From an uncultured Solirubrobacteraceae bacterium (GTDB lineage: Bacteria; Actinomycetota; Thermoleophilia; Solirubrobacterales; Solirubrobacteraceae), in NCBI GenBank assembly GCA_964242305.1, contig CAXTBB010000011.1, positions 52,935 to 76,934 of the forward strand: a stretch of DNA of 24,000 nucleotides. The letters are read 5' to 3'. The position numbers and the translations under genes are program-made. Within the stretch, counting starts at the first letter, position 1; each line of letters opens with the position of its first letter. This document shows positions 10,059 to 24,000 of the stretch, piece after piece. The notes below the pieces were generated by a model, which worked only from the letters and a program-made list of their open reading frames with translations, did no database searches and had not been told where the DNA came from.

Positions 10059-11048
10059 GTGGACGTCAGCGTGCTCACACCGGTGCTGAACGAGGAGTCT
10101 CACCTCCACGACGTGGTCAACCGGATGCAGGGCCAGGACTTCGACGGCGAGGTCGAGTTCCTGTTCATCGACGGCGGCTCGACGGACGCCAGCCGGGCGA
10201 TCCTGGCCGAGCGGGCGGCCGCCGACCCGCGCATTCGCGTCCTCGACAATCCCCGCCGGCGCACGCCCTTCGCGCTCAACCTCGGCCTGCGAGCCGCCCG
10301 CGGGGAGTTCGTCGCGCGCATGGACGCCCACACGCGCTATCCGCCCGAGTACCTGCGGCTGGGTGTCCACCGGCTTCGGCGCGGCGGCGCCACGCACGTC
10401 AGCGGCCCGCAGCTCGCCGTCGGGGACGGGCGGCCGTGGTCGGACCGGGTCGCGCTGGCGCTGTCGACCTCCCTGGGCACCGGCGGCGCTGCCTTTCGCT
10501 CGGCCGGGGACGCCGAGTTCGAGGTCGACACCGGCTTCACCGGGATGTGGCGCCGCGACGTCCTCGAGCGCGCAGGCGGCTGGGACGAGGCCTGGCTGAC
10601 CGACCAGGACTGCGAGCTGGCCTTCCGGCTGCACGAGACGGAGCCGGGCGCCCACGTCTGCGTCCCCGCGATGGCGGCCCAGTACCTGCCGCGCGACTCG
10701 CTGGCGAGCCTGCGCCGCCAGTACTGGCAGTACGGGCTGCACAAGGTCAAGACGTTCCGCCGCCACCCGCAGGCGATGCGCCCGTCGCACCTGCTCCCGC
10801 CCGTCGTCGCCGCCACCGTGCTGGCCGCGCCGTTCAGCCGCATCGCACGCCTCGGCCTGGGCGGTTACGCCGCCGCACTCGTTGTCACCGCCGCCCGCGC
10901 CGACGCGTCGCCGGGAGACGCCGCCGCGCTCCCGCTGGTCCACGCGACCATGCACCTGGCCTACGGCTTCGGCCTGATCGCCGGCGTCCGTCAAGAGGGT
11001 CTCCCCGCCGCCGCGATCGCCGGCGCGGTGAGACGGGTGCTGGCGTGA
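10059..11048 (+). CDS. family 2 glycosyltransferase (ExoA-like)
   Basis: The N-terminus VDVSVLTPVLNEESHL...FLFIDGGSTDASRAIL...ARGEFVARMDAHT is typical of a GT2 GT-A fold with a DxD-like (M)DAH motif. The tail is hydrophobic. Confidence 0.85.
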   Translation: MDVSVLTPVLNEESHLHDVVNRMQGQDFDGEVEFLFIDGGSTDASRAILAERAAADPRIRVLDNPRRRTPFALNLGLRAARGEFVARMDAHTRYPPEYLRLGVHRLRRGGATHVSGPQLAVGDGRPWSDRVALALSTSLGTGGAAFRSAGDAEFEVDTGFTGMWRRDVLERAGGWDEAWLTDQDCELAFRLHETEPGAHVCVPAMAAQYLPRDSLASLRRQYWQYGLHKVKTFRRHPQAMRPSHLLPPVVAATVLAAPFSRIARLGLGGYAAALVVTAARADASPGDAAALPLVHATMHLAYGFGLIAGVRQEGLPAAAIAGAVRRVLA

Positions 11049-12160
11049 GGCTGGCCGCCTACGAGGACGCGATCTACCAGCGCGACACCGACGGGACGCT
11101 GACGGTCCACCGGGCGTTCCCGTTGTTCATGTTCGGCCTGGCCGACGGGGTCGAGGCTCTCACCGTCCTCGGCCGTCTGGACCCAACCCCGGGTCGCTCG
11201 CATTACGCGGTCCCCGCGCCCGACAGCTTCGTGCCGCTGCCGCATTACGAGAACGCGGCCGACGTCGGTGCCGTCGTCCGCGCGCTCAGGGGCACCGTGC
11301 GCGAGTGCTGGCGCGTGCTGGGACGGGTCGACGCGGTCTGGGTCAACGGACCGAGCCCGATGGCGGTCGTCCTCGCGGTCCTCGCCCTGATGCGTCGCCG
11401 GCGGCTCGTCCTCGGGGTCCGTCAGGACACGCTCGCCTACGCCCGCAACCGCTTTCCGGGCCGTCGCGGACCGCTGCTCGCGTTCTGGCTGATGGACGCC
11501 GTCTGGCGCGCGCTCGGGCGCGTCGCGCGGGTGACCGCCGTCGGCCCGGCGCTGGCGGCCCGCCATCCCGGGGCGCATCAGCTCGCCGTCTCCTTCGTCC
11601 GCGACGGCGACCTCGAGGCGCCCCGCGCGCCGTCCGGCGGCGGCCGCACGCTGCTCTCGGTGGGGCGCCTGGAGACGGAGAAGAACCCGCTCCTGCTCGC
11701 GGACGTCCTGGCCGAGCTCGGCGACGGCTACCGGCTGCAGATCGTCGGCGAGGGCCCGCTCGAACCCGAGCTGCGCGCCCGCCTCGAGCAGCTCGGGGTC
11801 GACGAACGGGCCGAGCTGCTCGGGTACGTCCCGCTCGACGGCGGCCTGTTCGACCGCTACCGGTCCTGCGACCTGTTCCTGCACGTCTCCTGGACGGAGG
11901 GCCTCCCCCAGGTCCTGCTGGAGGCGTTCGCCGCCCGCGCGCCCGTGGTCGCCACCGCGGTTGGCGGGGTCCCCGAGGTCGCCGAGGGAGCTGCGCTGCT
12001 GATCCCGCCTGGGGACGCGAAGGCGGCCGCGGACGCCGTCCGCCGCATGCTCGGCGAGGACGCGCTGCGCGAGCGGTTGGTCGCCGCGGGGCTCGAACGG
12101 GCGCGCGCGCGGACGCAGGACGCCGAGCGCCGGCGCCTGCTGGCGTTCATCGCGGCTTGA
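11045..12160 (+). CDS. family 4 glycosyltransferase (GT-B, Glycos_transf_1 C-domain)
   Basis: The real part of track ORF 10436..12160 begins at GTG 11045, a GTGA overlap with the GT2 stop. The C-domain reads LLSVGRLETEKNPLLL...QIVGEGPLEPELRARLEQLGV...LFLHVSWTEGLPQVLLEAFAARAPVVATAVGGVPEV, containing the EX7E-type motif. Confidence 0.85.
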   Translation: MRLAAYEDAIYQRDTDGTLTVHRAFPLFMFGLADGVEALTVLGRLDPTPGRSHYAVPAPDSFVPLPHYENAADVGAVVRALRGTVRECWRVLGRVDAVWVNGPSPMAVVLAVLALMRRRRLVLGVRQDTLAYARNRFPGRRGPLLAFWLMDAVWRALGRVARVTAVGPALAARHPGAHQLAVSFVRDGDLEAPRAPSGGGRTLLSVGRLETEKNPLLLADVLAELGDGYRLQIVGEGPLEPELRARLEQLGVDERAELLGYVPLDGGLFDRYRSCDLFLHVSWTEGLPQVLLEAFAARAPVVATAVGGVPEVAEGAALLIPPGDAKAAADAVRRMLGEDALRERLVAAGLERARARTQDAERRRLLAFIAA

Positions 12161-12935
12161 CGGCCAGGTACTCGAGGCCCTCGACGGCGAGGTTGCCGAC
12201 CAGCCGGGCCGGCGGGGAGGATGCCGCCACCTCCAATACGCGCTGGCGAAGCCCGGTGGCCTCCCCCGCGGCCGCCCGCATCTCCCACTGGTCGACCGTG
12301 CGCGCGAAGCCCGCCTCGTGCAGCCGGCGGACCACCTCGCGGTTGTCGAACCACCAATACGCGGGGCGGGTCGTGTGGCCGACGAGCCACGGCTTCTCGC
12401 GCATCGCCCAGTCCATGATCGCCCGGCGAGCGCGGTCGGGGTACCAGGGGAAGCCCGGGAAGCGCGCGATCTCGTTCTGCCGCGGCGAGAGGTGGCTGGT
12501 GGTCGAGAAGAACATCCCTCCCCCGGGGCGCAGGACGCGGTAGCCCTCGCGGAACACGGCCCACGGATCGTCCACGTGCTCGAGCACCGAGTAGACGTGC
12601 ACGTACTGGAACTCCCCGTCCTCGAACGGCAGCGCCTCGGCCACGCCCTCGACGATCTCGGTCAGAACGCCGGTCGCCTCCGCGAAGGCGTGACGGGTCG
12701 AGAGCGCGTCGAGGGAGGGCTCGACGCCGCGCGCGGCGTAGCCGTGCTCGAGGAAGGCCGTGACGGTCACGCCCTGCGCGGCGCCGACGTCGAGGACCGG
12801 ATCCCCTGGCTCGAGCGCCATGAACGGCCGCAGGCGGGCCACGAGGCGCGGGACGTGGCCGCGCCACTCCGCGAGTCGCTCGAGTGCCTGGTCGACGGTG
12901 TTGAGCTCGGTGGCTCCCTGTTCGCAGTCGGTCAC
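12147..12935 (-). CDS. class I SAM-dependent methyltransferase (atypical motif I)
   Basis: GTG 12935 is preceded by GAGAAAGG and overlaps the upstream TGA (GTGA). Motif I is VLDVGAAQGVTV. The post-motif region FQYVHVYSVLEHVDDPWAVFREGYRVLRPGGGMFFST is typical of the Methyltransf_11/23 type. The rest of track ORF 12147..13442 is out-of-frame overlap. Confidence 0.8.
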   Translation of the reverse strand: MTDCEQGATELNTVDQALERLAEWRGHVPRLVARLRPFMALEPGDPVLDVGAAQGVTVTAFLEHGYAARGVEPSLDALSTRHAFAEATGVLTEIVEGVAEALPFEDGEFQYVHVYSVLEHVDDPWAVFREGYRVLRPGGGMFFSTTSHLSPRQNEIARFPGFPWYPDRARRAIMDWAMREKPWLVGHTTRPAYWWFDNREVVRRLHEAGFARTVDQWEMRAAAGEATGLRQRVLEVAASSPPARLVGNLAVEGLEYLAVKPR

Positions 12936-13627
12936 GCCGCCGCCTTTCTCAGTGTTCCGACGAGGTGGGTGTCGGCCAGGCGCAGCCCCGACAGCGCGAC
13001 CGCGACGGGCCGCGCGCGTCCGGCCAGGGCACGGGCCAGCGGCGGCGCCAGGGTGGCCCGGCGCAGGGTGGGCTCCAGGTCCGGGAACAGCCGGCGCAGC
13101 TCGCGGCGGCCGACGCCGCGCGTGTTCGCGTTGCGCGGCTCGGACACGAAGAAGTCGTACCAGAGGATCAGGCCGCCCGGGCGCAGCACGCGCGTCATCT
13201 CGCCGGCGATGGCCGCGCGCGTGGCACCGTCGAGCACCGACGACAGCATCATGCTCTGGAAGACGACGTCGAACGACTGGTCGTCCCACGCCAGCGACGT
13301 GGCGTCGCCCTCCCGGACGTCGGCACCCGGCAGCCGGTGCGCGGCGCGCTCGGCGCGTGCCGCGACGAGGTCGACACCGGCGAGGCGGTCTCGCTCGGTG
13401 CCCCAGCTCTCGAAGCGCGCCAGCCATCCGCCCCCCCCGCACCCGACGTCGAGCACGGACCGGCCGGCGAGCGGCAGCCCACCCGCACGCCTGAGCGCCT
13501 CGACGGCCAGGCGCTCCGTCTCCTGCACGATGAGGATCTGCGCGGGCTCGGTGAACGCGTAGCGGTCGTCTCCCGCCTGGGCCCGCCGCCGATACTCGTC
13601 ACGGATGCGGTCGGCTTCGGCGCTCAC
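12932..13627 (-). CDS. class I SAM-dependent methyltransferase
   Basis: GTG 13627 overlaps the upstream TGA (GTGA). Motif I is SVLDVGCGGGGWLARF. The acidic loop is GVDLV. Downstream reads FDVVFQSMMLSSVLD...MTRVLRPGGLILWYDF. Confidence 0.85.
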   Translation of the reverse strand: MSAEADRIRDEYRRRAQAGDDRYAFTEPAQILIVQETERLAVEALRRAGGLPLAGRSVLDVGCGGGGWLARFESWGTERDRLAGVDLVAARAERAAHRLPGADVREGDATSLAWDDQSFDVVFQSMMLSSVLDGATRAAIAGEMTRVLRPGGLILWYDFFVSEPRNANTRGVGRRELRRLFPDLEPTLRRATLAPPLARALAGRARPVAVALSGLRLADTHLVGTLRKAAA

Positions 13628-14997
13628 GGGGCCGCCCGCGCCTCGGCGGCACGCCCGAGCCGCAGCAGGCACGGACCGAGGGCGAGCAGGATCCATAGCG
13701 ACTTCTCGTGCTCCATCGAGATGAACATGCCGGCGGCGAGCAGCGCGACCGTCGCCACGATCACCGAGCGCGACAGCAGTTCCATGGCGGTGTCGCCCGC
13801 CCTGTGGAACGCCCACGCCGCCTGGACGCCGCAGCGCATGGCGGCGGCCACGATGGCCATGAAGATCGTCAGGCCGACGAGCCCGAGCTCCGCCCACAGA
13901 CCGAGATACAGGTTGTGGACGACCTTCGGGCTGTCGATGATGAAGTCGACGCGTTGGATGTCGCCCGCGTCGAACAGGTAGTGCTTGGAGACGACCGTGA
14001 AGTTCCCGGCGCCGACCCCCACGACGGGGTGGGCGCGCGCGACGCGCTCGGCGACCCGCCAGATGTCGGTGCGCCCGCTGCCGTTGCCGAACTCCTGCAG
14101 GCGCGTGCGGGCCTCCTGCGGGGCGGCCTGTGTGATGTATGCGGCGCCGAGCCCGAGCACGACGACGGCCAGGATCGCCGCGGGCAATCGGCGGCCGGGA
14201 CCGGCGAAGAGGACCGCGCACGCCGTCGCCGAGCTGAGCGCGATGATCCCCGTCCGCGACGCCGTGACGACCAGCGAGAAGAACAGCACCAGGATGAGCA
14301 CCGCCGCCAGCGCGCGCACCGCGACCGCGTACCCGCGGGTCAGGACGGCGAAGGCGCACATCGCGATCCCGGCGACGAGCGCGGCGGCCAGCTCGTTGGG
14401 GTCGACGCCCGCGCCGCTGATCCGGCCCTCCGCCGCGGCGTCGGCGTCCGCCGGTGCGATGAAGGCGCCGTAGACCGTGCTGACGAGCACGCCGGCGACG
14501 AACGCCATCAGCACCCGGCGCAGATCCTTGTCCTCCCGGACGCCGGCGTAGACGATCCCGAACAGCAGCAGGTTGGGGCCGAACCGCTGGAGCGCGTCGA
14601 TGACCGCGTCGGGGGCCTCGGCCCAGATCAACCCGGCGGAGACCCACGCCATCAAGAGCGCGCCCAGGACGACGATGCCGCGGTGCTTGGACCCGAAGCG
14701 CGGACGCGCGCCGGGCGCCGCCGCAGAGGCGGCCAGCCACGACAGCACCAGGACGCCGCCCAGCAGCTTGGCCGCGGAGAGCGCGCCGAACCCGGGCAGG
14801 ACCTCGGTGAAGCTCGTGAAGGTGAAGATGATCACTCCGGCGGTGAGGTCAAGGACGACGAGGGAGACGAAGGCGATCGCGGCCGCGCCGCCGATCGCCA
14901 CGAGTGGCGCCACGACGGCGACGAGCCCGAGCGCGGCGGCCACCAGCGCCGTGAGCACGGGCACCATCCACACCGGAGCCTCGTAGCGCGCCGTCAT
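13624..14997 (-). CDS. O-antigen ligase/polymerase-like membrane protein (Wzy_C domain family)
   Basis: Polytopic (more than 10 TM). Wzy_C-type signatures: VVTASRTGIIAL, GNGSGRTDIWRVAERVARAHPVVGVGAGNF, HNLYLGLWAELGLVGL. ATG 14997 overlaps the upstream TGA (ATGA). The GTG 15048 start in the track would add an implausible Gly/Arg leader. Confidence 0.8.
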   Translation of the reverse strand: MTARYEAPVWMVPVLTALVAAALGLVAVVAPLVAIGGAAAIAFVSLVVLDLTAGVIIFTFTSFTEVLPGFGALSAAKLLGGVLVLSWLAASAAAPGARPRFGSKHRGIVVLGALLMAWVSAGLIWAEAPDAVIDALQRFGPNLLLFGIVYAGVREDKDLRRVLMAFVAGVLVSTVYGAFIAPADADAAAEGRISGAGVDPNELAAALVAGIAMCAFAVLTRGYAVAVRALAAVLILVLFFSLVVTASRTGIIALSSATACAVLFAGPGRRLPAAILAVVVLGLGAAYITQAAPQEARTRLQEFGNGSGRTDIWRVAERVARAHPVVGVGAGNFTVVSKHYLFDAGDIQRVDFIIDSPKVVHNLYLGLWAELGLVGLTIFMAIVAAAMRCGVQAAWAFHRAGDTAMELLSRSVIVATVALLAAGMFISMEHEKSLWILLALGPCLLRLGRAAEARAAP

Positions 14998-16085
14998 CGC
15001 GCCACCGCCTCGATGCCCGGGGCCATCTTCGCCGCGACGGCCGCCCACGACGCGTCCTCGCGCACCCGCCGCAGCGCCTCGGCTCCCATCGCCGCCGCGC
15101 GGTCCGGGTCACCCAGCAGTTCGATCAGCGCGTCCGCGACCGCACCGGGGTCGCGGGGAGGGACGAGCCGGCCGGTCACCCCATCGTCGATGATCTCCGG
15201 CACGGCGAAGGCATCCGTGCCGATGCAGGGCAGGCCGTTGGCCATCGCCTCGTGATAGACGAGGCCCCACGGGTCCCACAGGGTCGGCAGCACGAACACG
15301 GTGGCGGAGGCATAGAGGGCCGCCAGCTCGGCGCGTGACTCCACCCGTCCCGTCCAGCGTACGCCCGAGGCGTCCGGCCCGGGCGGCGGCCCCACGATCA
15401 CGAGCTCCGCGTCGGGCACCGCCGCCCGAACCGCGGGCCACGCCGCGAGCACCTCGTGGCCGCCCTTGCGCTCCAGCTCGAGGCCCACGAGCAGCGCCCG
15501 CGGCCGGTCGGGGCGCGGTGGCGGCGCGGCGACGATGTCCAGGTTCGCGCCGGCGCCGACCGCCGTGACCCGCGCCGGGTCGCATCCGTAGTCCGAGATC
15601 GCGGAACCGCGGGCGAACTCGCTCATGGTGAAGACGTGCGACGCGCCGGTGAAGACCCGGCGCTCTCGGTCCTGGAGCGCGCGTAGCCGCGTGAGCGTCG
15701 TCGGGAGCCCACCGAAGCGATAGCGCTCGTTCAGCGCCTGCGTGGAATCCGTGTACAGGACGTAGGGCGCCGACCGGCTGCGGCCGCCGGGGGCGTTGAG
15801 GGTCTGCGTCTGCACGATGACGTCATAGTCGCCTACGTGGCGGCGCAGCGCGCGCTCGACCACGAACGTGCGCCCCGCGAAGTGCAGGCGCGAGTAGTCG
15901 ATGCGCAGCTTCCAGGCCGTCACGCTGGGATGCACGGTGCGGGCGGCGAGCAGCGCGAAGAGCGGTCGGGTGAGCACCGGCCGGATGACGTCGACGATCT
16001 CGAAGTGCGCGGCGAGCCCGTCGTACAGCCCGGTCCACTTGCCGCCTGAGTCCTGCGCCACGCCGAGAACGCGGACCTGGGGCAC
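14994..16085 (-). CDS. family 4 glycosyltransferase
   Basis: The C-domain reads ALLVGLELERKGGHEVL...LVIVGPPPG...RWTGRVESRAELAALYASATVFVLPTLWDPWGLVYHEAMANGLPCIGTDAFAVPEIIDDGVTGRLV. The preferred start is GTG 16085 (VPQVRVLGVAQDSGG, a typical GT4 N-terminus), 6 nt after a TACGCT -10 box. The track start 16265 would overlap the divergent flippase gene. Confidence 0.8.
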   Translation of the reverse strand: MPQVRVLGVAQDSGGKWTGLYDGLAAHFEIVDVIRPVLTRPLFALLAARTVHPSVTAWKLRIDYSRLHFAGRTFVVERALRRHVGDYDVIVQTQTLNAPGGRSRSAPYVLYTDSTQALNERYRFGGLPTTLTRLRALQDRERRVFTGASHVFTMSEFARGSAISDYGCDPARVTAVGAGANLDIVAAPPPRPDRPRALLVGLELERKGGHEVLAAWPAVRAAVPDAELVIVGPPPGPDASGVRWTGRVESRAELAALYASATVFVLPTLWDPWGLVYHEAMANGLPCIGTDAFAVPEIIDDGVTGRLVPPRDPGAVADALIELLGDPDRAAAMGAEALRRVREDASWAAVAAKMAPGIEAVAR

Positions 16086-16134
16086 CCCAGGAGCGTATCC
16101 GGCGTCCCAGGCACCGCCCGTATGCTCGCGCGAC
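16086..16134. promoter_or_regulatory. 49-nt divergent promoter region, both genes apparently leaderless
   Basis: Plus strand: TATGCT (16121-16126), then 8 nt, then GTG 16135. Minus strand: TACGCT (16097-16092), then 6 nt, then GTG 16085. A direct repeat CCCAGG occurs at 16086-16091 and 16106-16111, with 20-nt periodicity. Confidence 0.35.
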
Positions 16135-17631
16135 GTGTCCGGTGCCACCGAGCCAACCGCCGTGGCCGGCGGAGAGCCGGCGCCCGAACCGGCGGGCGTC
16201 GTCGCCAACACCTTCTTCGGGTTGGTGGGCCAGGTCGTCACGGCGGGCTTCACAGCGGCACTCACCCTCTATCTCGTCCGCGCACTCGGTCCGCACGAGT
16301 TCGGCGTCTTCTCTCTCGCGCTGAGCGTCAGCTCGATCGCCATCGTCCTGGCCGATTTCGGGATCGCGACCGCGGTGTCGATGTTCACCGCCCGCGAGCG
16401 CGAGAACCCCGCCGAGTTGCGGCGTGTCACCGACGCCGCCCTGCGCCTGAAGGTGATCGGAAGCGCCGTCATCGCCGTCGCACTCGTCCTGCTGGCGCCG
16501 GTGATCGCCTCGGCGTACGGCGAGCCCGGCCTGACCTGGCCGCTGCGGGCGGTCGCCGCCTCGCTGTTCCTCGAGAGTCAGTTGATGCTCTACACGAGCG
16601 TCTTCGGCGCTCTGCTCCGCGTCGCCGTCAACACCCGTGTGATCTTCTGGGAGAGCCTGGTCGAGGCGACCGCCAGCATCTCCCTGGTCGTGCTCGGACT
16701 CGGCGCGGCCGGCGCGCTGCTGGGCCGGGCGGTCGGGTACGCCGTCGGTCTCGGGCTGGCCATGCTGCTGCTCTCGCGCGCCATCGGCCGGCCGTCGCTG
16801 CGCCGGGACGTCGATCGGGACCTCCAGCGCTCGATCCTCGCGTACGCGCGCCCCCTGATCATCCTCGGCAGCGCCTATGTGATCTACAACTACCTCGACG
16901 CCCTGCTGATCGGGGCGCTGCTGTCCGCTCGCGACGTCGGGGAGTTCGCCGCCCCCATGCGCTTCATCGTGCTGGCCGGGTACGTCGGCCAGGCGGTCGG
17001 GTCGGCGATCGCGCCGCGGCTGGCCGGGGACAGCCCGGACACGACGACGTTCATGGTCGGCCTCCGCCTGATGCTGCTCGTGCAGGCGCTCATCGTCGTC
17101 CCGCTGCTGGTCTGGGCGGACCCCATCATCGACCTCCTGCTCGGGCCCGGCTATCGCGAGGCGCCGGCGGTCATGCAAACCCTGACGCCGTACACGTTCT
17201 TGCTGGGGCTCGCTCCGCTCATCACCCAGAGCACGATCTTCATCGGGGCCGCAGGGCGGCGCGTGCGCATCGTCATGGCGTCGTTGGCGCTCAACGCCGC
17301 CGTCGACCTCGCACTGCTGCCGGTGATCGGCGTGGAGGGCGCCGCGATCGGGACCTCGCTGGCCTTCGCGCTGTACGTGCCGGCGCACCTGCGGTTGTGC
17401 TCCACGACCCTCGACCTGCACCTCGGCGTGCTGCTCCCGACGGTGCTGCGCTCGCTGCTGGCCGCCGTCGCGGCGGGCGGCGTGCTCCTGGCGATCGGGA
17501 CGCGGGACCTGAGCGCCGCCCAGTGGGCGTTGGGCGTCGTCGGGTGCCCCGCGGCCTACCTGGGCGTGCTGGTGGCGACGCGCGAGCTCGGTCGCGACGA
17601 CCTGCGCGACCTGCGCACGTTGCGGCAATGA
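16135..17631 (+). CDS. polysaccharide/oligosaccharide flippase (Wzx-like, MOP superfamily)
   Basis: Polytopic protein. The N-terminal region reads NTFFGLVGQVVTAGFTAALTLYLVRALGPHEFGVFSLALSV, with many further TM segments typical of the Polysacc_synt family. The start is GTG 16135 (in frame with track ORF 15901..17631), or alternatively GTG 16162. The stop overlaps the next ATG (ATGA). Confidence 0.8.
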   Translation: MSGATEPTAVAGGEPAPEPAGVVANTFFGLVGQVVTAGFTAALTLYLVRALGPHEFGVFSLALSVSSIAIVLADFGIATAVSMFTARERENPAELRRVTDAALRLKVIGSAVIAVALVLLAPVIASAYGEPGLTWPLRAVAASLFLESQLMLYTSVFGALLRVAVNTRVIFWESLVEATASISLVVLGLGAAGALLGRAVGYAVGLGLAMLLLSRAIGRPSLRRDVDRDLQRSILAYARPLIILGSAYVIYNYLDALLIGALLSARDVGEFAAPMRFIVLAGYVGQAVGSAIAPRLAGDSPDTTTFMVGLRLMLLVQALIVVPLLVWADPIIDLLLGPGYREAPAVMQTLTPYTFLLGLAPLITQSTIFIGAAGRRVRIVMASLALNAAVDLALLPVIGVEGAAIGTSLAFALYVPAHLRLCSTTLDLHLGVLLPTVLRSLLAAVAAGGVLLAIGTRDLSAAQWALGVVGCPAAYLGVLVATRELGRDDLRDLRTLRQ

Positions 17632-18722
17632 CCCATCCGTCGCCAGACGGACGGGTGGCCTCAGGCTCGCGACGTCCGTATCCGATGTACTTCGTGGCCC
17701 CTGTCTCGCCGCCCCTCGCCGTGTCTCTGCGCCTCGCCCCCCTCATCTCCCTCTGCTTCTGGCTGATCGCCTGCGGCGGCCCGGTCGGCACGGTGTCGGC
17801 GGCCACGTGCGACGTCGTCGCCTCCCCCGCCGGCGCCGACGGCGCGGCCGGCACCGCCGACGCCCCGCTGCGCAGCGCGCAGGCGGTCATCGACCGGCTG
17901 CGTCCCGGGCAGACCGGCTGCCTGCGGGCCGGGCGCTACGACGGGCGCGGCGCGCCCGGGTACGCCGCGCGCTTCGGTCACGGGGGCCGGCCGGGCCGGC
18001 CGCTCACGCTGCGCTCCTTCCCGGGCGAGCGCGCGACGCTGCGCGGGGTCGTCTACGTCCCCCGGGGGTCCGACAACGTGACCATCTCCGATCTGACCAT
18101 CGACGATCCCACGTCGTACCTGCGCGATCGCCAGCTCACCGTCCAGCTCAACGCCCGCGCGACGCGCCTGGTGCGCGACGAGATCACCAACGGCGCCACC
18201 AAGACCTGCGTGGTACTCGGCGTGGGCGGGGCACGGGCGACCGGCACCGTCATCCGCGACTCCGTCCTGCACGACTGCGGCGACCCCGGCAACCGGATGC
18301 TCGACCATGCCATCTACGTCGCCTCGGCCCGGCGCACCAGGGTGGTGGCCAACACGATCATCCGCGCCGGCGGCTACGCCGTGCACCTGTACCCGGACGC
18401 CCAGCGCAGCGTCGTCCGCGACAACGTCATGATCGGCAACGGCGGGGGCGTGATCTTCGCCGGCGAGGGCGACGAAGCCTCGTCGAACAACCTGGTCGAG
18501 GGCAACGTCATCGGAGACTCGACCAGCGAGGCGGACATCACGTCCTACTGGGGCGGGCGCACCGGCCGGGGCAACGTCGCCCGGGACAACTGCGTCTCGC
18601 ATGCGCCCGCCACAGAGGGTCGGGGCTTCGCCACCGTAGCCAACGTCGTGGGCATCAACCATTGCGACGGCGTCGTGCCGCCCGCGCTGTCGGCGGCCGC
18701 GATCAAGCTCCTGACGCCCTGA
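17628..18722 (+). CDS. right-handed parallel beta-helix protein, probable lipoprotein (putative glycan lyase/hydrolase/modifying enzyme)
   Basis: This is the C-terminal 364 codons of track ORF 16122..18722. ATG 17628 gives an ATGA overlap with the flippase stop; ATG 17685 is an alternative. The signal-like N-terminus ends in the lipobox L-I-A-C (Cys codon 17772-17774). A beta-helix cap motif follows (ASPAGADGAAGTADAPLRSAQAVIDRLRPGQTGCLRAGRY). Repeated turns read NVTISDLTI, TRLVRDEITNG, VIRDSVLHDCGDP, DHAIYV, NVMIGNGGGVIFAGEGD, NLVEGNVIG. Confidence 0.75.
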   Translation: MTHPSPDGRVASGSRRPYPMYFVAPVSPPLAVSLRLAPLISLCFWLIACGGPVGTVSAATCDVVASPAGADGAAGTADAPLRSAQAVIDRLRPGQTGCLRAGRYDGRGAPGYAARFGHGGRPGRPLTLRSFPGERATLRGVVYVPRGSDNVTISDLTIDDPTSYLRDRQLTVQLNARATRLVRDEITNGATKTCVVLGVGGARATGTVIRDSVLHDCGDPGNRMLDHAIYVASARRTRVVANTIIRAGGYAVHLYPDAQRSVVRDNVMIGNGGGVIFAGEGDEASSNNLVEGNVIGDSTSEADITSYWGGRTGRGNVARDNCVSHAPATEGRGFATVANVVGINHCDGVVPPALSAAAIKLLTP

Positions 18723-18774: not shown

Positions 18775-20283
18775 GTGTCGATGCAGACGACGATGCCCCG
18801 CCGCCTGCTGTTCCCGCTGCTCGTGTTGGTCTTCGCAACCGCGGCCGCGTCAGCCCACGCCGCCGTCGTCACCTGCAGCCGTTACGCGTCACCCTTCGGC
18901 TCCGACGTGGGCACGGGCACTCAGGCGTCTCCCTACCTGACCGCCCAGAAGCTCGCCGACGCGCTGACCCCGGGCCAGATCGGATGCCTGGACTCGGGCA
19001 CCTACGGAGAGCCCTACGCGGGCGCCAACGTGCTGCGCGTCAACCACGGCGGGACCCCCGGAGCGCCGATCGTCATCCGGAGCACGCCGGGCCAGCGGGC
19101 GACCCTGCGCGGCCTGGTCTACGTGCCGGCGGGGTCGGACAACGTCACCATCTCCAACCTCGACCTCGACGTCCGCCGGGCCACCCCGGACAAGACGGTC
19201 GGCATCCAGGTGATGGGCAACGACGTCGTCCTGGCTCGCAACGACATCACCAATCGCGCGACCGCGATCTGCTCCTCCTTCGGCGCCCCCGGCTGGGGCC
19301 GTCCCGCCCGGGTGACCATCCGGGAGAACGTCTTCCACGACTGCGGTGACCCGGCCGACACCATCTACGACCACGCCGTCTACCTGGAGTCGGTCGACGG
19401 CGGGCTCATCACGGACAACCTGTTCTTGCGCTCCAGCGCCTACGCGGTCCACTTCTACCCCGACGCCACCAACGTGACCGTCTCCCACAACGTGATGGAC
19501 GGCAACGGCAGCGGCGTCATCTTCGCCGGCGAGGGCGACGCCGCCTCTACAGGCAACGTCGTCTCCCAGAACGTCGTGACCAACTCCCGCATCCGGCCCG
19601 GGATCCACTCGTGGTGGGGCAAGGCCGTGGGGACAGGGAACCGCGCGTCGTCGAACTGCGTCAACAACCCGGGGCAGACCAACGTGGACGTGTCGCTGGG
19701 TGGCTTCACCGCCACTGGCAACGTGATCGCCGCTCCGGCCTACGTCGACCCGGCCCACGGCGACTACCGCCTGGCCAGCACCAGCGGGTGCTTGAGCGTC
19801 GTCGGTTACGACACGGCCGCCAAGCTGCGCGCGATCCCCGAGGACACCGCGACCGCACCCACCCCGACGCCGACGCCAACCGCGACGCCGTCCGTGACGG
19901 CCACGCCGAGTCCGACGGCGACGCCGGCACCGACCACGACGGCGGCCCCCACCGCCACACCGGCTCCCACTGCCACCGCGACGCCCACACCGCACCCGAC
20001 CCTGACGCCCACGCCCACCTCCACCCCGACGGCCACACCCGCGCCGGCCACGCCCGCGGTCACCCCGGTCCCGCCGGTGCCGGTGCCGACGATCCCGGCG
20101 CCGGAGGACGGCACCGCGCCGCCGCCGACGACGAACGTCCCGCCGGTGGAAGCCGCCCACATCGAGGTCGACGACAAGGCCTTCAGCGCCAGCGGCGGTT
20201 CCACGGTGTCCCCTGACGCGGTGCGGGCCTGCAAGCGGCTGCCCAAGCGCAAGCGCGCCGCCTGCCTGGCCGCCCTCGGCTAG
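18775..20283 (+). CDS. secreted right-handed beta-helix protein with Pro/Thr/Ala-rich linker and short basic Cys-bracketed C-terminal tail
   Basis: Sec-type signal MPRRLLFPLLVLVFATAAASAHA|AVV. The start is GTG 18775, ATG 18781 or ATG 18793. The cap motif is YASPFGSDVGTGTQASPYLTAQKLADALTPGQIGCLDSGTY. The beta-helix turns are paralogous to those of 17628..18722 (ATLRGLVYVPAGSDNVTISNL, VFHDCGDP, DHAVYL, YAVHFYPDAT, GNGSGVIFAGEGD). Confidence 0.8.
   Translation: MSMQTTMPRRLLFPLLVLVFATAAASAHAAVVTCSRYASPFGSDVGTGTQASPYLTAQKLADALTPGQIGCLDSGTYGEPYAGANVLRVNHGGTPGAPIVIRSTPGQRATLRGLVYVPAGSDNVTISNLDLDVRRATPDKTVGIQVMGNDVVLARNDITNRATAICSSFGAPGWGRPARVTIRENVFHDCGDPADTIYDHAVYLESVDGGLITDNLFLRSSAYAVHFYPDATNVTVSHNVMDGNGSGVIFAGEGDAASTGNVVSQNVVTNSRIRPGIHSWWGKAVGTGNRASSNCVNNPGQTNVDVSLGGFTATGNVIAAPAYVDPAHGDYRLASTSGCLSVVGYDTAAKLRAIPEDTATAPTPTPTPTATPSVTATPSPTATPAPTTTAAPTATPAPTATATPTPHPTLTPTPTSTPTATPAPATPAVTPVPPVPVPTIPAPEDGTAPPPTTNVPPVEAAHIEVDDKAFSASGGSTVSPDAVRACKRLPKRKRAACLAALG
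19846..20139 (+). repeat. low-complexity (ACN/CCN/GCN)n coding repeat encoding a Pro/Thr/Ala linker
   Basis: Codons 358-455 of the beta-helix gene read TATAPTPTPTPTATPSVTATPSPTATPAPTTTAAPTATPAPTATATPTPHPTLTPTPTSTPTATPAPATPAVTPVPPVPVPTIPAPEDGTAPPPTTN. The triplet periodicity is imperfect and in frame. Confidence 0.7.
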
Positions 20284-21404
20284 CGGAGGCGAGCGGCCAG
20301 GAGCCGCTCGTAGACGCCGGCGCAGCGCTCGGCGTACTTGGCAACCGTGAAGTCGCCGGCGCGCGCACGCGCCGCGACGGCCATGGCGGCCCGGCGGTCC
20401 GGGTCACTCAGCACGGTCGCCAGCCCACGGGCCAGCGCTTCCGGATCGCGGCGCTCGACGAGGATCGAGCAACGCTCGTCGACCACGTCCGGGATGCCTC
20501 CGACGTTCGTCGCGACGACGGGGACGCCCGCCGCCAGCGCCTCCAGCAACGAAAGCGGCATGCCCTCGAAATCGGAGCTCATGACCATCACGTCGGCCGC
20601 CGCCCAGACCGCCGCGGTGTCCTCCCGGTAGCCGAGCAGGTGCACCGCGGCGCCCAATCCGCGCCGGACGATGCCGGCCTCCACGGCCGCCCGCTCCTCG
20701 CCGTCCCCGGCCACGATCAGCCGGGCGTCGGGCAGGTTGGCGCGTAGGCGGGCGAACGCGTCCAGCAGCACGTCGAGTCGCTTCTGGGGCCGCATCAGCA
20801 TGACCGCCGCCGCGACGGCGGCGCCGGCAGGGATGCCGAGCTCGGTGCGGAGGTCGCCGGCGGCTGCGGCCGGGCGCGGCGACCAGGCGTTCGGGACGAC
20901 CTCGATCTTCGCGCGGGGCACCCGCTCCAAGCGGTGCATGCGCTCGGCGTCGGCCGACGAGACGGCCAGGAAGGCGTCGGCGAGCCGGCCGATCACGAGG
21001 CCGTCGACCACCCGCCGCACGTACTGGCCCTCGTAGGACCACGTGTGCTCGTGGGCGACGACCGCGGGGACGCGGAACACGCGCCCGAAGATCGATCCCC
21101 AGACGTTCGAGCCGTACATGTGGGCGTGCAGCACGTCCGGGCGCAGCGCGCGCAGCAGGGCCGCGAACCGGCGGTGACCAGCGAGGTCGAACGTGGCCGT
21201 CCGCCCGAGGTGCACGTGACGGGCGCCGGAGGCGAGAAGCTCCTCGAGGGGTTCGCCCCCCGCAAGACGGCTGGTGCACAGCCACACGTCGAACCGGTCG
21301 CGCGGGAGGTTGACGGCGAGGGCGAGCGCGGCGCGCTCGGCCCCCGCGGAGGAGTCATCCAGGCGGTCGACGAGACCGAGCACGCGGATCCGGCCGGACG
21401 GCAT
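20280..21404 (-). CDS. family 4 glycosyltransferase
   Basis: 374 aa. The N-terminus reads RIRVLGLVDRLDDSSAGAERAALALA. The C-domain reads RLIVAGDGEERAAVEAGIVRRGLGAAVHLLGYRED...VMVMSSDFEGMPLSLLEALAAGVPVVATNVGGIPDVV. Its stop overlaps the convergent beta-helix gene's stop within CTAG (20280-20283). Confidence 0.9.
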   Translation of the reverse strand: MPSGRIRVLGLVDRLDDSSAGAERAALALAVNLPRDRFDVWLCTSRLAGGEPLEELLASGARHVHLGRTATFDLAGHRRFAALLRALRPDVLHAHMYGSNVWGSIFGRVFRVPAVVAHEHTWSYEGQYVRRVVDGLVIGRLADAFLAVSSADAERMHRLERVPRAKIEVVPNAWSPRPAAAAGDLRTELGIPAGAAVAAAVMLMRPQKRLDVLLDAFARLRANLPDARLIVAGDGEERAAVEAGIVRRGLGAAVHLLGYREDTAAVWAAADVMVMSSDFEGMPLSLLEALAAGVPVVATNVGGIPDVVDERCSILVERRDPEALARGLATVLSDPDRRAAMAVAARARAGDFTVAKYAERCAGVYERLLAARLR

Positions 21405-21422
21405 CGCCCGGGCAGACTACGG

Positions 21423-21818
21423 CTAGATCAGCGACGCGTTGCCGCTGAGGATGCTGATCAGGCGCGGGAGGCGGTGGGTGCGCGTGGCCAGCATGAAGCG
21501 GCCGATCGCGGTCTCCTGCGCGTGGTGCCGCGCGCCGACAACCGCGCGCAGGCGGCGGTGGTGGTCCGTGTGACCGCCGTCGATCGTGGTGCGGAAGCTG
21601 AGCACCTCGACGGGGCGCCCGCGGCGATCGCGGGTGCGCTCGCGGCGCAGCACCGGGCCGCTCGAGGTCTGGCGGACCAGCACGGCAAGGAGCACCATGA
21701 GCGGGAGCAGAAGCAGCAGCAGCCCAAGGGAGACGAGAACATCGAGGACCCTGCGGACGGAGAGCGTCCGCGCGGGTGAAGTCGACGAAGTGGCTGAGAC
21801 GGTGCGGACGCTGCCCAT
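21423..21818 (-). CDS. truncated, catalytically degenerate phosphoglycosyl transferase (Bac_transf family N-terminal fragment, 131 aa); possibly a pseudogene
   Basis: From ATG 21818: RRVLDVLVSLGLLLLLLPLMVLLAVLVRQTSSGPVLRRERTRDRRGRPVEVLSFRT matches the re-entrant helix plus the GPVxFxQxRxGxxGxxFxxxKFRT motif of monotopic PGTs. AIGRFMLATRTHRLPRLISILSGNASLI aligns to VGRFLRRTSLDELPQLxNVLxGxMSLV. The Asp-Glu dyad reads His-Arg, and the ORF stops just before the expected GPRP motif. GC3 is still high. No SD or -10 was seen upstream. Confidence 0.6.
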   Translation of the reverse strand: MGSVRTVSATSSTSPARTLSVRRVLDVLVSLGLLLLLLPLMVLLAVLVRQTSSGPVLRRERTRDRRGRPVEVLSFRTTIDGGHTDHHRRLRAVVGARHHAQETAIGRFMLATRTHRLPRLISILSGNASLI

Positions 21819-21908
21819 GTGGGTTCGATCGGGACACAAGAGCCAGCGCTTGAGGGGATCGCTGCGCAACTGGACGCCTGATGAGCCAGATGGCATGGTG
21901 TGCGCTCC

Positions 21909-22301
21909 ATGGCCCTGCGCGTCGGCATCGACACCGTTTCCGTGGACGCCGTCCGCGCGGCGCTCGACGCCCACGGGGAGCGATACCTGCGCCGGGTCTT
22001 CACCGAACGCGAGGTCGCGGAGTCCGCGGGCGAGCCGGAGCGGCTCGCCGCCCGCTTCGCCGCGAAGGAGGCGACGCTGAAGGCGCTTCGCGCGGGCGAC
22101 GGCGGCGTGCCCTGGCCGGCGATGGAGGTCCGCCGCCATCCCGGCGGGCACACGGATCTGGCCCTGTCGGGCGTGGCGGCGGAGCGCGCCGCGGCGGCGG
22201 GCATCGTCGACCTCGCGGTCTCCCTCACCCACGAGGCCGGTCTAGCCTCTGCGGTCGTCGTCGCCCAGACGAAAGTTTCCGACGCAACGGCCGATACGTG
22301 A
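21909..22301 (+). CDS. acpS: holo-[acyl-carrier-protein] synthase (AcpS-type 4'-phosphopantetheinyl transferase)
   Basis: MALRVGIDTVSVDAVRAAL...RVFTEREV...LAARFAAKEATLKAL...WPAMEVRRHPGGHTDLALSG...VSLTHEAGLASAVVVA matches the AcpS pattern (GxDxxxxxR, F(T/S)xxE, AKEAxxKA, SISH-like). The track start GTG 21900 is an alternative. Confidence 0.85.
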   Translation: MALRVGIDTVSVDAVRAALDAHGERYLRRVFTEREVAESAGEPERLAARFAAKEATLKALRAGDGGVPWPAMEVRRHPGGHTDLALSGVAAERAAAAGIVDLAVSLTHEAGLASAVVVAQTKVSDATADT

Positions 22302-22324
22302 GCAGACCCCGAGAGGACCGACCC

Positions 22325-22576
22325 ATGACCGACCGCATTCGCACAATCCTTTCCGACCATGCCCGCCTGAGCGTGGACGCCGCCACCCTGGGCAACCACG
22401 ACGATCTCTACCAGGCCGGGATGACGTCGCACGCCAGTGTCCAGGTGATGCTCGCGCTCGAAGACGAGTTCGACGTCGAGTTCCCCGACGCCATGCTCAA
22501 GCGCAGCGTCTTCGAGACCATCGCGAACATGGCCGAGGCCGTGGGCTCGCTGGTCGAAGCAGAGCAGGCGGCGTGA
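22325..22576 (+). CDS. acyl/aminoacyl carrier protein (83 aa)
   Basis: This is the C-terminal part of track ORF 21881..22576. ATG 22325 is preceded by GAGAGGA (22311-22317). The sequence is MTDRIRTILSDHARLSVDAATLGNHDDLYQAGMTSHASVQVMLALEDEFDVEFPDAMLKRSVFETIANMAEAV. It looks like a four-helix ACP with the putative phosphopantetheine Ser in GMTSH, at the start of helix 2. Confidence 0.85.
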   Translation: MTDRIRTILSDHARLSVDAATLGNHDDLYQAGMTSHASVQVMLALEDEFDVEFPDAMLKRSVFETIANMAEAVGSLVEAEQAA

Positions 22577-23736
22577 CCGTCACCGAGGAGACCGTGGACG
22601 CCGACGCCGCTTTCCTGGCCGGCGTTCGCCAGATCGCCGATGACGTCGCCGCGCGGCACGCGCTGGACGTCGACGCGAACGCGCGCTTCCCGGTGGAGAC
22701 GATCGACGCGCTGCGCGAACAGCGCGCGCTCTCCGCCTACCTCGAAGGCGTGTCCTTCGCCGCGCTGGCCCAGGCCTGCTTCGAGCTGGGCCGCCGGTGC
22801 GGCGCCAGCGCGATGGTCTTCGCCATGCACCAGATCCAGGTCGTCTCGATCGCGCGCCACGGCGCGGGGCAGCCGTTCTTCGACGACCACCTGCGCCGCG
22901 TCGCCGACGAGCAGCGCCTGATCGCCTCCGTGACCTCCGAGATGGGGACCGGTGGGGACATGGGCAAGTCCGTCGCGGGCCTCGAGCCGGCTGGGGACGG
23001 GATGCTGCGCTTCGTCAAGCAGGCTCCGACCGTCTCCTACGGCGCCTACGCGGACGATCTGCTGGTCACCGTCCGCCGCACCGCCGAGTCCGAGCCCTCC
23101 GACCAGGTCGCCGTGCTCACCCGGACCGACCAGCACCAGCTCGAGCCGCAGGGCACCTGGGACCCATTCGGGATGCGTGGCACCTGCTCTCCGGGCTTCG
23201 TCGTCGGCGCCACCGTCTCCCCCGACCAGGTCATCGCCGTCCCCTTCTCGACCATCGCACCGGAGTCGATGGTGCCCGTCTCGCACGTGCTGTGGTCGCA
23301 TCTCTGGCTCGGCATCGCCACGGAGGCCTTCGACCGGGCCCGCGCCTTCGTCAAGGTCGCGGCCAAGCGCGCGCCCGGCGCGCCGCCGCCGAGCGCGGCG
23401 AAGCTCTCGCAGGTCATGAGCGAACTGGCGATGCTCCGTGCGGAGGTGTGCATGGGTCTCAACGACTACTGCTCCCACATGGATGACGACCGCGAGTGGC
23501 TGTCGACCATGAGCGCGATCCTGCGCTTCAACAACCTCAAGATCGCGGCCTCGGACGCGGCGCCGCGGATCTGCCAGGGCGCCATGGGCGTGACCGGGAT
23601 CGTGGGCTTCAAGAACGACACCCCGTTTGCGGTCGGCCGGCATCTGCGCGACTCGATGTCGGCCTGCCTGATGGTCGCTAACGAGCGCATCCACCAGACC
23701 AACGCCAGCCTGCTCCTCATCGCCAAAGAGGTCTGA
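22573..23736 (+). CDS. acyl-CoA dehydrogenase-fold flavoprotein
   Basis: 387 aa with ACAD-like organisation: an N-terminal helical domain (ARFPVETIDALREQRAL), a middle beta domain (IASVTSEMGTGGDMGKS...WDPFGMRGTCSPGFVV) and a C-terminal helical domain (...PFAVGRHLRDSMSACLMVANERIHQTNASLLLIA). GTGA overlap with the ACP stop. Confidence 0.85.
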   Translation: MTVTEETVDADAAFLAGVRQIADDVAARHALDVDANARFPVETIDALREQRALSAYLEGVSFAALAQACFELGRRCGASAMVFAMHQIQVVSIARHGAGQPFFDDHLRRVADEQRLIASVTSEMGTGGDMGKSVAGLEPAGDGMLRFVKQAPTVSYGAYADDLLVTVRRTAESEPSDQVAVLTRTDQHQLEPQGTWDPFGMRGTCSPGFVVGATVSPDQVIAVPFSTIAPESMVPVSHVLWSHLWLGIATEAFDRARAFVKVAAKRAPGAPPPSAAKLSQVMSELAMLRAEVCMGLNDYCSHMDDDREWLSTMSAILRFNNLKIAASDAAPRICQGAMGVTGIVGFKNDTPFAVGRHLRDSMSACLMVANERIHQTNASLLLIAKEV

Positions 23737-24000
23737 TGGCCGAGGTGCGCGTTGGGACCCCCGAGGAGACGGCCTTCCTCGAGCAGCTGCTGGCGGCCGG
23801 GCTGCTGATCGACTCCGGCGTCCCCGGCGTGTACGGGCGTGGATCGGCGTTCGAGGAGGTCCGCGAGGCCGTCGACGAGCTGATCACGCGCACGGGTGGC
23901 GACGACGGCGCGGAGCGTCTGCGCTTCCCGCCCGTGCTCCCCAAGCGCAACCTCGAGTCGACGGGCTACCTGAAGTCGTTTCCGCACCTCGGCGCGTCGG
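23736..24000 (+). CDS. amino acid--[acyl-carrier-protein] ligase (SerRS-like class II aaRS homologue), 3'-partial
   Basis: Not in the ORF track, because it has no stop within the window. ATG 23736 overlaps the ACAD TGA by 1 nt. Hand translation: MAEVRVGTPEETAFLEQLLAAGLLIDSGVPGVYGRGSAFEEVREAVDELITRTGGDDGAERLRFPPVLPKRNLESTGYLKSFPHLGAS. The frame stays open to 24000 with high GC3. The pattern resembles the N-terminus of carrier-protein-aminoacylating SerRS homologues. The assignment is from memory, not from a search. Confidence 0.65.
   Translation, partial: MAEVRVGTPEETAFLEQLLAAGLLIDSGVPGVYGRGSAFEEVREAVDELITRTGGDDGAERLRFPPVLPKRNLESTGYLKSFPHLGAS

Follow-up and report, generated by a model that had tools for sequence, protein, structure and literature searches.

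What is made by an operon that charges its own carrier protein with an amino acid and lies beside genes for a surface glycan? We addressed this question for a 24,000-nucleotide stretch of contig CAXTBB010000011.1 from an uncultured Solirubrobacteraceae bacterium; the whole stretch is called the window below. Its right end carries genes for an AcpS-type 4'-phosphopantetheinyl transferase, a dedicated aminoacyl carrier protein (CP), a flavoprotein with the acyl-CoA dehydrogenase (ACAD) fold, and the 5' part of an amino acid:[carrier protein] ligase. Judged by comparison with related loci, this cassette makes up the 5' half of an operon with six to seven conserved genes. The reading that we prefer, and that we put at about an even chance, is that the operon is thiotemplated: an amino acid would be loaded on the CP, oxidized and transferred, here likely onto a sugar of the glycan.

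The cassette and its operon

All four genes are read from the plus strand. An earlier note, made from the letters of the window, had described four same-strand genes at these places, and the coordinates and the matches to curated hidden Markov models (HMMs), with E-values far past chance level, bear this out. The AcpS gene (21909..22301) starts with ATG at 21909, or alternatively with GTG at 21900, and its stop codon is at 22299-22301. The product scored above the cutoffs of the phosphopantetheinyl transferase domain models PF01648 (50.7 bits; cutoff, 25) and TIGR00556 (65.2 bits; cutoff, 45.35), and narrowly below that of the strict equivalog TIGR00516 (56.6 vs 59.8). Several holo-acyl carrier protein (ACP) synthase models matched it at E-values from 1e-18 to 4e-26.

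A gap of 23 nt (22302-22324) separates AcpS from the 83-aa CP (22325..22576). A Shine-Dalgarno-like motif, GAGAGGA (22311..22317, plus strand), is located in this gap, 7 nt before the CP ATG. The CP stop codon overlaps the start codon of the 387-aa ACAD-fold protein (22573..23736) in the sequence GTGA (22573-22576), and the stop codon of the latter overlaps the ATG of the ligase in TGATG (23734-23738). The ligase gene is open at the end of the window, which holds its N-terminal 88 codons (23736..24000), with a class II core similar to that of seryl-tRNA synthetase (SerRS). The gap, the motif and both overlaps had all been given correctly in the earlier note. No promoter or terminator was picked up by a scan of 21300-22400, which is expected for a window with 72% G+C.

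We performed a ligase-alignment scan with one genome per species. At least 600 stretches matched and at least 574 were confirmed; the ligase is thus encoded in at least 574 species representatives. We fetched 80 loci, and reference proteins were mapped onto 84 loci using tblastn and HMMs, gene calls being used only to sample the flanks. The gene order was fixed across the 84 loci: [AcpS]-CP-ACAD-ligase-DUF1839-GH2-like-double alpha/beta hydrolase, where GH2 stands for glycoside hydrolase family 2. The ligase was present in 83 of them, the CP in 82, the ACAD-fold protein in 81, DUF1839 in 78, the GH2-like protein in 72, AcpS in 68 and the hydrolase in 55; many of the loci end at contig ends. 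The cassette had been taken as a unit of four genes, which does not hold, since the relatives continue with three further conserved genes (DUF1839, GH2-like and hydrolase).

The closest relative among the fetched loci was a Solirubrobacteraceae metagenome-assembled genome (L031; ACAD identity, 83%), in which stop and start codons overlap throughout the operon. From this arrangement, and from the proteins P0015 (100% identical ACAD) and P0139 (306-aa DUF1839, 83% identical to that of L031), each on a single 96,569-bp contig, the contig of the window very probably continues with the same operon.

The hosts of the loci belong to four phyla and include Thermoleophilia (Solirubrobacterales and Gaiellales), Chloroflexota, Alphaproteobacteria and Myxococcales. 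The operon was also found on many plasmids, including megaplasmids, of Azospirillum, Rhizobium, Burkholderia, Mycetohabitans and others. There, the NCBI annotation reads acyl carrier protein, acyl-CoA dehydrogenase family, amino acid--[ACP] ligase, DUF1839 family, glycoside hydrolase family 2 and alpha/beta fold hydrolase. The operon of the window is one of hundreds of copies of a known, annotated and widely spread operon, the function of which has been open for about fifteen years. One plasmid copy, on pCC283b_4 of Rhizobium leguminosarum (L085), has IS110 and IS5 elements upstream of the operon and another IS5 right after DUF1839. GH2 and hydrolase genes are unannotated at their usual place in this copy, in which the pathway may be naturally truncated.

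Carrier protein and ligase

The CP passed the cutoff of NF005480/PRK07081 (111.7 bits; cutoff, 72). Its best solved relatives were 4H2W_C, named 'Aminoacyl carrier protein', and Atu2571 (2JQ4), both at an E-value of 4e-14, compared with about 1e-3 for generic ACPs. The motif GMTSHAS, which holds the predicted Ser attachment site, aligned with GLSSFAS of 4H2W_C.

The earlier note had proposed searching the last open reading frame (ORF) with models of amino acid--[ACP] ligases, and NF005479 matched the fragment at an E-value of 4.8e-25, residues 8-87 corresponding to model positions 16-95 of 318. The score of 88.2 bits is that of a fragment, against a whole-protein cutoff of 357, because only 88 of about 310 residues lie in the window. 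The fragment aligned from residue 1 with full-length orthologues of 308-310 aa (alignment A1). Two of these orthologues, from Baekduia soli (L003, 310 aa) and Sphingomonas (L004, 308 aa), gave 406 and 380 bits with NF005479 (cutoff, 357). The Baekduia ligase matched the structures of Bll0957 from Bradyrhizobium at an E-value of 1e-83 and type-2 SerRS at 4.5e-12, the latter in the C-terminal core. By these alignments, the window ligase is a true member of the NF005479 family and not an aminoacyl-tRNA synthetase (aaRS). The NF005479 alignment and the length of the orthologues also uphold the claim that the ORF lacks an N-terminal tRNA-binding arm and belongs to the amino acid:[carrier protein] ligases.

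Zinc-site and pocket residues were read in the ligases of the related loci, since in the window ligase they would lie past base 24000. The zinc ligands Cys131 and Cys279 (Bll0957 numbering) were kept in all 78 related-locus ligases, and the ligand Glu176 was kept in the three full-length rows of alignment A1. Pocket position 281, two residues after the second zinc Cys, was Gly in 78 of 78 ligases and is Ala in Bll0957. Position 278, just before that Cys, was Ala in 74 of 78 and is Gly in Bll0957, so that the pair is swapped. The A281G mutant of Bll0957 reportedly gained activity on alanine and serine. Because of the Gly at position 281 and this reported effect, the amino acid loaded here may be other than glycine, with Ala or Ser as the candidates; we regard this as a lead and not as a result.

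When the 88-aa ligase fragment was used in a protein search, all of the matches were short (59-153 aa). A split or truncated ligase was considered and rejected: the short matches come from contig ends or from frameshifted long-read assemblies (L001 and L002), and intact proteins of 308-310 aa are usual. In L001 and L002, which are long-read metagenome contigs from ENA, the gene calls within the operon are fragmentary and have tails in the wrong frame, which looks like assembly frameshifts and accounts for such matches.

The ACAD-fold flavoenzyme

The third gene of the cassette had been described as encoding an ACAD-fold enzyme. The fold was confirmed, while the chemistry implied by the name seems less likely than oxygenation, as described below. 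The protein scored above the cutoff of PF02771 (28.2 bits; cutoff, 22.9) and below that of the C-terminal domain model PF00441 (17.6 bits; cutoff, 22.4). The best NCBIfam equivalog, NF049984, gave 74 bits against a cutoff of 600. Weak sequence matches to SfnB and DszC were also obtained, and a further alignment search returned DszC and DnmZ. Homologues across phyla were 68-86% identical. In an extended alignment, the protein reads RDSMSACLMVANERI (…LMVANE…) where ACADs read RDAKITQIYEGT (…IYEGT…), which places a Val at the position of the catalytic Glu; this call concerns the C-terminal (I/Y)-E-G-T site, as distinct from the alternative Glu position of IVD and LCAD.

An AF2 model of the protein was obtained at a pLDDT of 79. 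When this model was searched against the PDB using Foldseek, the top matches were KijD3, TdsC/DszC, DnmZ and ORF36, with root-mean-square deviations (rmsd) of 3.5-3.9 Å. All of these are reduced-flavin-dependent oxygenases, and three of them N-oxygenate amino sugars. True ACADs gave an rmsd of 4.6-6.6 Å, a TM-score of about 0.7 and slightly worse E-values.

A Flavin_Reduct gene (E-value, 4e-35) starts within about 100 bp of the end of the hydrolase gene in six Chloroflexota loci and overlaps its stop codon in L017. In L018, a Flavin_Reduct gene follows AcpS at the end of the operon. Six further loci have the flavin reductase one gene further downstream, and in the two of these that were scanned (L015 and L021) an HpaB-type oxygenase gene (about 16340-17775) precedes the reductase. 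The reductase alone was found at about 16270-16880 in L017, L047 and other Chloroflexota. The window, which ends mid-operon, contains no flavin reductase. Genes for ornithine-cyclodeaminase-like or DAO-type oxidoreductases were also seen near Chloroflexota copies of the operon.

Because the oxygenase folds are the closest, a Val occupies the Glu site and a flavin reductase accompanies the operon in Chloroflexota, we consider it fairly probable that the ACAD-fold protein is a two-component flavin monooxygenase acting on the tethered aminoacyl group.

Downstream genes of the operon

The genes beyond the end of the window were analyzed in the related loci. The model of DUF1839 (pLDDT, 91) is bipartite, with a mixed alpha/beta part to about residue 180 and helices at 184-305. 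Its only significant fold neighbors in the PDB were AziU2/U3, CtaG and CcbD (E-values, 2e-8 to 3e-5; TM-scores, 0.5-0.64), and these include CcbD bound to a peptidyl carrier protein (PCP) domain and to methylthiolincosamide, an amino sugar. Classical papain-like proteases matched the model at E-values above 0.05, and a DUF1839 profile search of the PDB gave no match at an E-value of 10 or below. Cys25, in the motif ETNCY, is invariant. CtaG is a papain-like, carrier-protein-dependent amide ligase that works in a ping-pong manner via a Cys acyl-enzyme; its homologues are BtrH, AsbE and MllDE, and CcbD acylates an amino sugar (PMC12865890). On the predicted fold, DUF1839 is probably the off-loading transferase of the operon.

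The GH2-like protein (650-850 aa) matched beta-mannosidases at an E-value of 9e-27. It keeps the motifs of the GH2 family, including those of both catalytic Glu residues: CGGSE (vs CGNNE) for the acid/base Glu and FASEC at the nucleophile position. The last protein is a fused double alpha/beta hydrolase of about 540-620 aa, the halves of which resemble the exosortase-A-associated hydrolases 2 and 1. The models of exosortase A hydrolases 1 and 2 (TIGR03100 and TIGR03101) matched these halves at E-values of 3.6e-25 and 3.7e-24, with scores below the curated cutoffs (89 vs 168 and 86 vs 203). Across 49 sequences, the nucleophile position of the N-terminal half is always a Gly. The C-terminal half reads G-L-C-(A/S)-G, its Cys being present in all 49 and its His in 47. 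The exosortase A hydrolases, in contrast to this fused protein with its Gly, are a separate pair, and this pair is found in exopolysaccharide loci together with a carrier protein and an adenylating enzyme. The beta-mannosidase match and the exosortase-A-type halves suggest a link of the operon to sugars.

No membrane or signal segment was found in DUF1839, the GH2-like protein or the hydrolase, and from their sequences all of the operon proteins look soluble. About 21 loci have a class I S-adenosylmethionine methyltransferase gene close to the operon, and in roughly half of these it comes immediately after the hydrolase gene (for example, L004, 16830-17609; L054, 15596-16453). Its recurrence suggests that the product is optionally methylated. 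The methyltransferase of L019 (15841-16503) is a different class I enzyme.

Glycan genes near the operon

We built HMMs from the GT4, GT2, Bac_transf, Wzx, Wzy and Wzz proteins of the window and its relatives and searched the six-frame ORFs of the loci. A locus was counted only if at least 4 kb of sequence flanked the operon on each side. At least one glycan gene was found in 25 of 42 Thermoleophilia loci, and genes of at least two families in 19; in 18 loci a glycan gene lay within 1.5 kb. In L031, a Wzz/tyrosine-kinase-like gene, Wzy_C and a full-length Bac_transf come after the operon and a short Bac_transf, the same as in the window, comes before it, so that glycan genes stand on both sides. 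In Baekduia soli, the operon lies between GT4/GT2/Bac_transf and GT2/Wzx/Wzy genes. Pfam domains were also surveyed in 134 ORFs that flank the operon in 16 loci pre-selected as glycan-positive; among them were four polysaccharide deacetylases, enzymes which could expose sugar amines.

Proposed pathway and alternative readings

We propose the following pathway. AcpS would attach the phosphopantetheine arm to the CP, as the families of the two proteins suggest. The SerRS-like ligase would activate a small amino acid with ATP and thioesterify the arm, by analogy with Bll0957, for which this activity was demonstrated with Gly or Ala. The ACAD-fold enzyme would oxidize the tethered aminoacyl group, most likely by reduced-flavin, O2-dependent N- or C-oxygenation and not by alpha,beta-dehydrogenation. 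From its papain-like CtaG/CcbD fold and its place in the gene order, DUF1839 would accept the acyl group at its invariant Cys and then join it to an amine acceptor through an amide bond. The beta-mannosidase-like GH2 protein and the Cys-nucleophile hydrolase may bind or process a sugar-containing acceptor or product, which is the weakest step of the scheme. All of these steps would be cytoplasmic. A glycan sugar or its precursor is the likeliest acceptor in this organism because a Wzx/Wzy glycan locus surrounds the operon here and in relatives. A more specific version is doubtful: the ACAD-fold protein would be an N-oxygenase making a hydroxylamine-type group and DUF1839 would install the product on an amino sugar, giving an N-(oxygenated aminoacyl) decoration of the surface glycan in Thermoleophilia and a related soluble glyco-amino-acid in other phyla.

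The scheme is of value for its testable chain from ligase to oxygenase to CtaG-like transferase to sugar-linked partners, rather than for any feature particular to the window. The window and its relatives offer new leads, namely DUF1839 as a candidate transferase of the recently recognized CtaG/CcbD class, a probable oxygenase and a sugar-binding partner, and they single out Thermoleophilia as a lineage in which, judged by the neighboring genes, the product is likely destined for a surface glycan. Functional hypotheses are thereby gained for DUF1839 and for the hydrolase pair related to the exosortase A systems. If the N-oxygenated aminoacyl decoration is true, it would explain what amino acid:[carrier protein] ligases do in the cell and represent a new kind of self-contained thiotemplated pathway.

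Several observations weigh against the proposed pathway. The glycan HMMs found no glycan gene in any of the 19 non-actinobacterial loci (12 Chloroflexota, 6 Alphaproteobacteria and 1 Myxococcales); their sensitivity is lower outside Thermoleophilia because the seeds were from Thermoleophilia. Pfam scans of the non-actinobacterial flanks returned SufBD, Rieske, ornithine cyclodeaminase, sigma factor, autotransporter, OsmC, GNAT and tail-collar proteins, and a direct Pfam scan found one Glyco_trans_1_2 gene after the operon in a myxobacterium. The association of the operon with glycan genes is thus real but lineage-specific, and the co-occurrence with glycan genes that the earlier note had suggested checking was found in 25 of the 42 Thermoleophilia loci and went undetected by these HMMs in the 19 other loci. 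In the glycan locus of the window, no amino-sugar aminotransferase was found. A glycoside hydrolase inside a biosynthetic operon lacks a ready explanation, and the experimental record for the family covers CP loading only. As for the enzymes, the candidates for the DUF1839 triad, His120, His141 and Asp152, are invariant and were picked by spacing, and a 2023 survey of the papain-like fold proposed an unusual C-(T/S)-H site for this family. The C-terminal 44 residues of the ACAD-fold model are poorly predicted, and the margin by which oxygenases precede dehydrogenases in the fold search is narrow (E-values, 1.7e-15 vs 2.3e-14). No flavin reductase was found near most loci of the set, and in the Chloroflexota loci that carry an HpaB-type oxygenase the reductase could serve that enzyme instead.

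These points bear on the alternatives to different degrees. The operon may make a soluble small molecule, such as an N-oxygenated aminoacyl-sugar or aminoacyl-amine serving as a chelator or signal, its adjacency to glycan genes being genomic-island mosaicism; we think this possible, though short of probable. It would agree with the 19 loci in which glycan genes went undetected, with the frequency of the operon on megaplasmids, with the missing membrane segments, and with a lineage-dependent presence of methyltransferase, HpaB-type oxygenase and flavin reductase that resembles the tailoring of natural products; moreover, all of the characterized CtaG-class and CcbD enzymes act in secondary metabolism (PMC12865890). 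Such a product is harder to reconcile with the glycan genes that lie, variously arranged, less than 1.5 kb from the operon in 18 of 42 Thermoleophilia loci, with the glycan genes flanking both sides in L031, and with the GH2-like protein and the exosortase-A-type hydrolase, whose counterparts are linked to exopolysaccharide, within the operon itself; no exporter is conserved with the operon. The earlier note had suggested that a cell-surface polymer or lipid is decorated with an aminoacyl or oxidized aminoacyl group. The glycan version is plausible in Thermoleophilia, whereas the lipid version found no support, and it is very improbable that the cassette aminoacylates a membrane lipid or a teichoic-acid-like polymer in the manner of Dlt (DltA/DltC/DltB/DltD; D-alanylation) or AlmEFG (glycine on lipid A). 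These systems share with the operon the loading of a small amino acid on a dedicated CP, there for envelope decoration, and envelope genes are adjacent here, among them one for an Acyl_transf_3 membrane protein, which had been cited in support as a membrane O-acyltransferase. However, this gene lies 12 kb from the cassette, and as a query it matched the window alone and stood beside no related locus. Dlt and AlmEFG use ANL-type adenylating ligases and membrane proteins for the transfer; the operon has neither, since its ligase is aaRS-like and outside the DltA/AlmE adenylate-forming superfamily, and its partners are soluble, with no membrane-bound transferase (DltB/MBOAT-like or AlmG-like) conserved among them. 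Both the Dlt-like and the AlmEFG-like readings were rejected on these grounds.

The identity of individual enzymes can also be read differently. A true dehydrogenase or oxidase in place of the monooxygenase, giving an imino, 2-oxo or dehydro acyl group like prolyl-PCP dehydrogenases or the ACAD homologues of aminomalonyl-ACP formation, seems unlikely on balance; it corresponds to the oxidized aminoacyl idea of the earlier note. The fold and the N-terminal domain do match ACADs, true ACADs are among the top 10-30 structural matches with similar E-values, one relative weakly matched the prolyl-PCP dehydrogenase RedW (E-value, 8.5e-6), and the scarcity of flavin reductase genes would be accommodated. 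Opposed to this are the Val at the usual position of the catalytic Glu, the lowest-rmsd neighbors, all of which are oxygenases, and the flavin reductase joined to the Chloroflexota operon; in addition, the family is known to use glycine, which lacks the beta carbon needed for a desaturation. Polymerization in the manner of PHA synthases, carried out by the Cys-nucleophile hydrolase, was considered as a further possibility, as was chemistry of the aminomalonyl-ACP type. The chance that the last ORF is a canonical SerRS or another tRNA-charging enzyme is negligible. Homology to the catalytic core of methanogen-type SerRS speaks for that reading, but the ORF starts within the core, at model position 16 of 318, its orthologues have 308-310 aa compared with about 520 aa for SerRS, and the L003 and L004 ligases gave 32-63 bits with SerRS models whose cutoffs are 490-611. 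A tRNA-charging enzyme was therefore rejected on size, start position and scores.

Comparison with known systems

Amino acid:[carrier protein] ligases were reportedly described by Mocibob and colleagues in 2010 and 2013, and the 2010 description is said to have presented them as connecting ribosomal with non-ribosomal peptide chemistry. The ligase and the CP of the window belong to the same families (NF005479 and NF005480) as Bll0957 of Bradyrhizobium japonicum (3MEY, 4H2S-4H2Y) and Atu2571 of Agrobacterium (2JQ4). The order CP-ACAD-ligase of the window fits bsr0959-bll0958-bll0957, in which we take bsr0959 to be the CP gene. The numbering Atu2571-2573 would fit as well, Atu2573 presumably being the ligase paired with the CP Atu2571. 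Unlike the alphaproteobacterial loci, the operon of the window has its own AcpS, and its setting in a Thermoleophilia actinobacterium, inside a glycan locus, differs from that of Bll0957 and Atu2571.

The Bll0957-type ligase and its CP have been characterized biochemically and structurally, and reviews describe how the phosphopantetheine arm is loaded with Gly or Ala. According to a 2022 review (PMC9437257), the biological role of CP aminoacylation 'remains unknown', and the remark of the earlier note that the product of the family is unresolved thus still applied at that date; our literature search found no later work resolving the physiological product. The gene bll0958, which adjoins bll0957, is annotated as an acyl-CoA dehydrogenase (PMC10888616). 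Under microaerobic conditions, a phaR mutant of Bradyrhizobium expressed both genes at about 3-fold higher levels (PMC10888616, table of PhaR-dependent genes), and these values are among the few expression data points for the operon. The neighborhood GH2-DUF1839-ligase-ACAD-ACP was already listed in the supplement of the 2023 survey of the papain-like fold, whose authors guessed at fatty-acid/phospholipid processing or cell-wall glycan processing. Our literature search found nothing beyond this remark.

Butirosin biosynthesis shares the logic of loading, tethered oxygenation and papain-like transfer to a sugar amine, with BtrI as the stand-alone CP, BtrJ as the ligase, BtrO/BtrV as the two-component monooxygenase and BtrH as the transferase. 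The butirosin oxygenase has a different fold from that of the window. The butirosin ligase is of the ATP-grasp type and not aaRS-like, there is no GH2 protein or double hydrolase, and the product is an antibiotic and not a surface glycan. The comparison is therefore one of 'works like' and not of membership. BtrH is listed as a homologue of the CtaG class (PMC12865890), and DUF1839 is predicted to share the CtaG fold. The best structural matches of DUF1839, the lincosamide amide synthases CcbD/LmbD and the closthioamide ligase CtaG, pass the carrier-bound acyl group to a Cys and then into an amide, the acceptor of CcbD being an amino sugar. DUF1839 is a Pfam family separate from CcbD and CtaG, without detectable sequence similarity, and the likeness is known from the predicted fold.

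Other genes of the window

The cassette had been described as lying divergently against a glycan assembly locus. The glycan locus is present, and the gene directly opposite is a short Bac_transf-like ORF of 131 aa (21423..21818, minus strand), 90 bp from the AcpS start, which matched PF02397 at an E-value of 2.8e-15 over model positions 1-105 of 179. A 131-aa form of this ORF occurs at the same place in L031 (7673-8065), in addition to the full-length downstream Bac_transf of that locus. The ORF looks like a maintained, truncated paralogue of a phosphoglycosyl transferase and not like a random pseudogene.

The last full gene of the glycan locus encodes a GT4 glycosyltransferase (20280..21404, minus strand; PF00534, E-value 1.2e-35; PF13439, E-value 3.4e-20). 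The rest of the locus was assigned using Pfam scans. The Acyl_transf_3 membrane protein (8768-10051), a GT2 (10059-11048) and a GT4 (11048-12160) are encoded on the plus strand, followed on the minus strand by a methyltransferase (about 12150-13442), Wzy_C (13624-15048) and another GT4 (14994-16265). Wzx (15901-17631) and two beta-helix proteins (17733-18650 and 18775-20283) are on the plus strand, the second beta-helix protein having a signal-peptide-like N-terminus and a long tail rich in Pro, Thr and Ala. Genes similar to these tandem right-handed beta-helix genes were found beside the operon in L031, L063, L065, L066 and L071.

The first 8.9 kb of the window carry genes for two ABC transporters, TrkA and two fusions of an amino-acid permease with a universal stress protein. 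The two fusions (4658-6637 and 6867-8894, minus strand) are adjacent, lie next to TrkA (3506-4180, minus strand) and are unrelated to the cassette.

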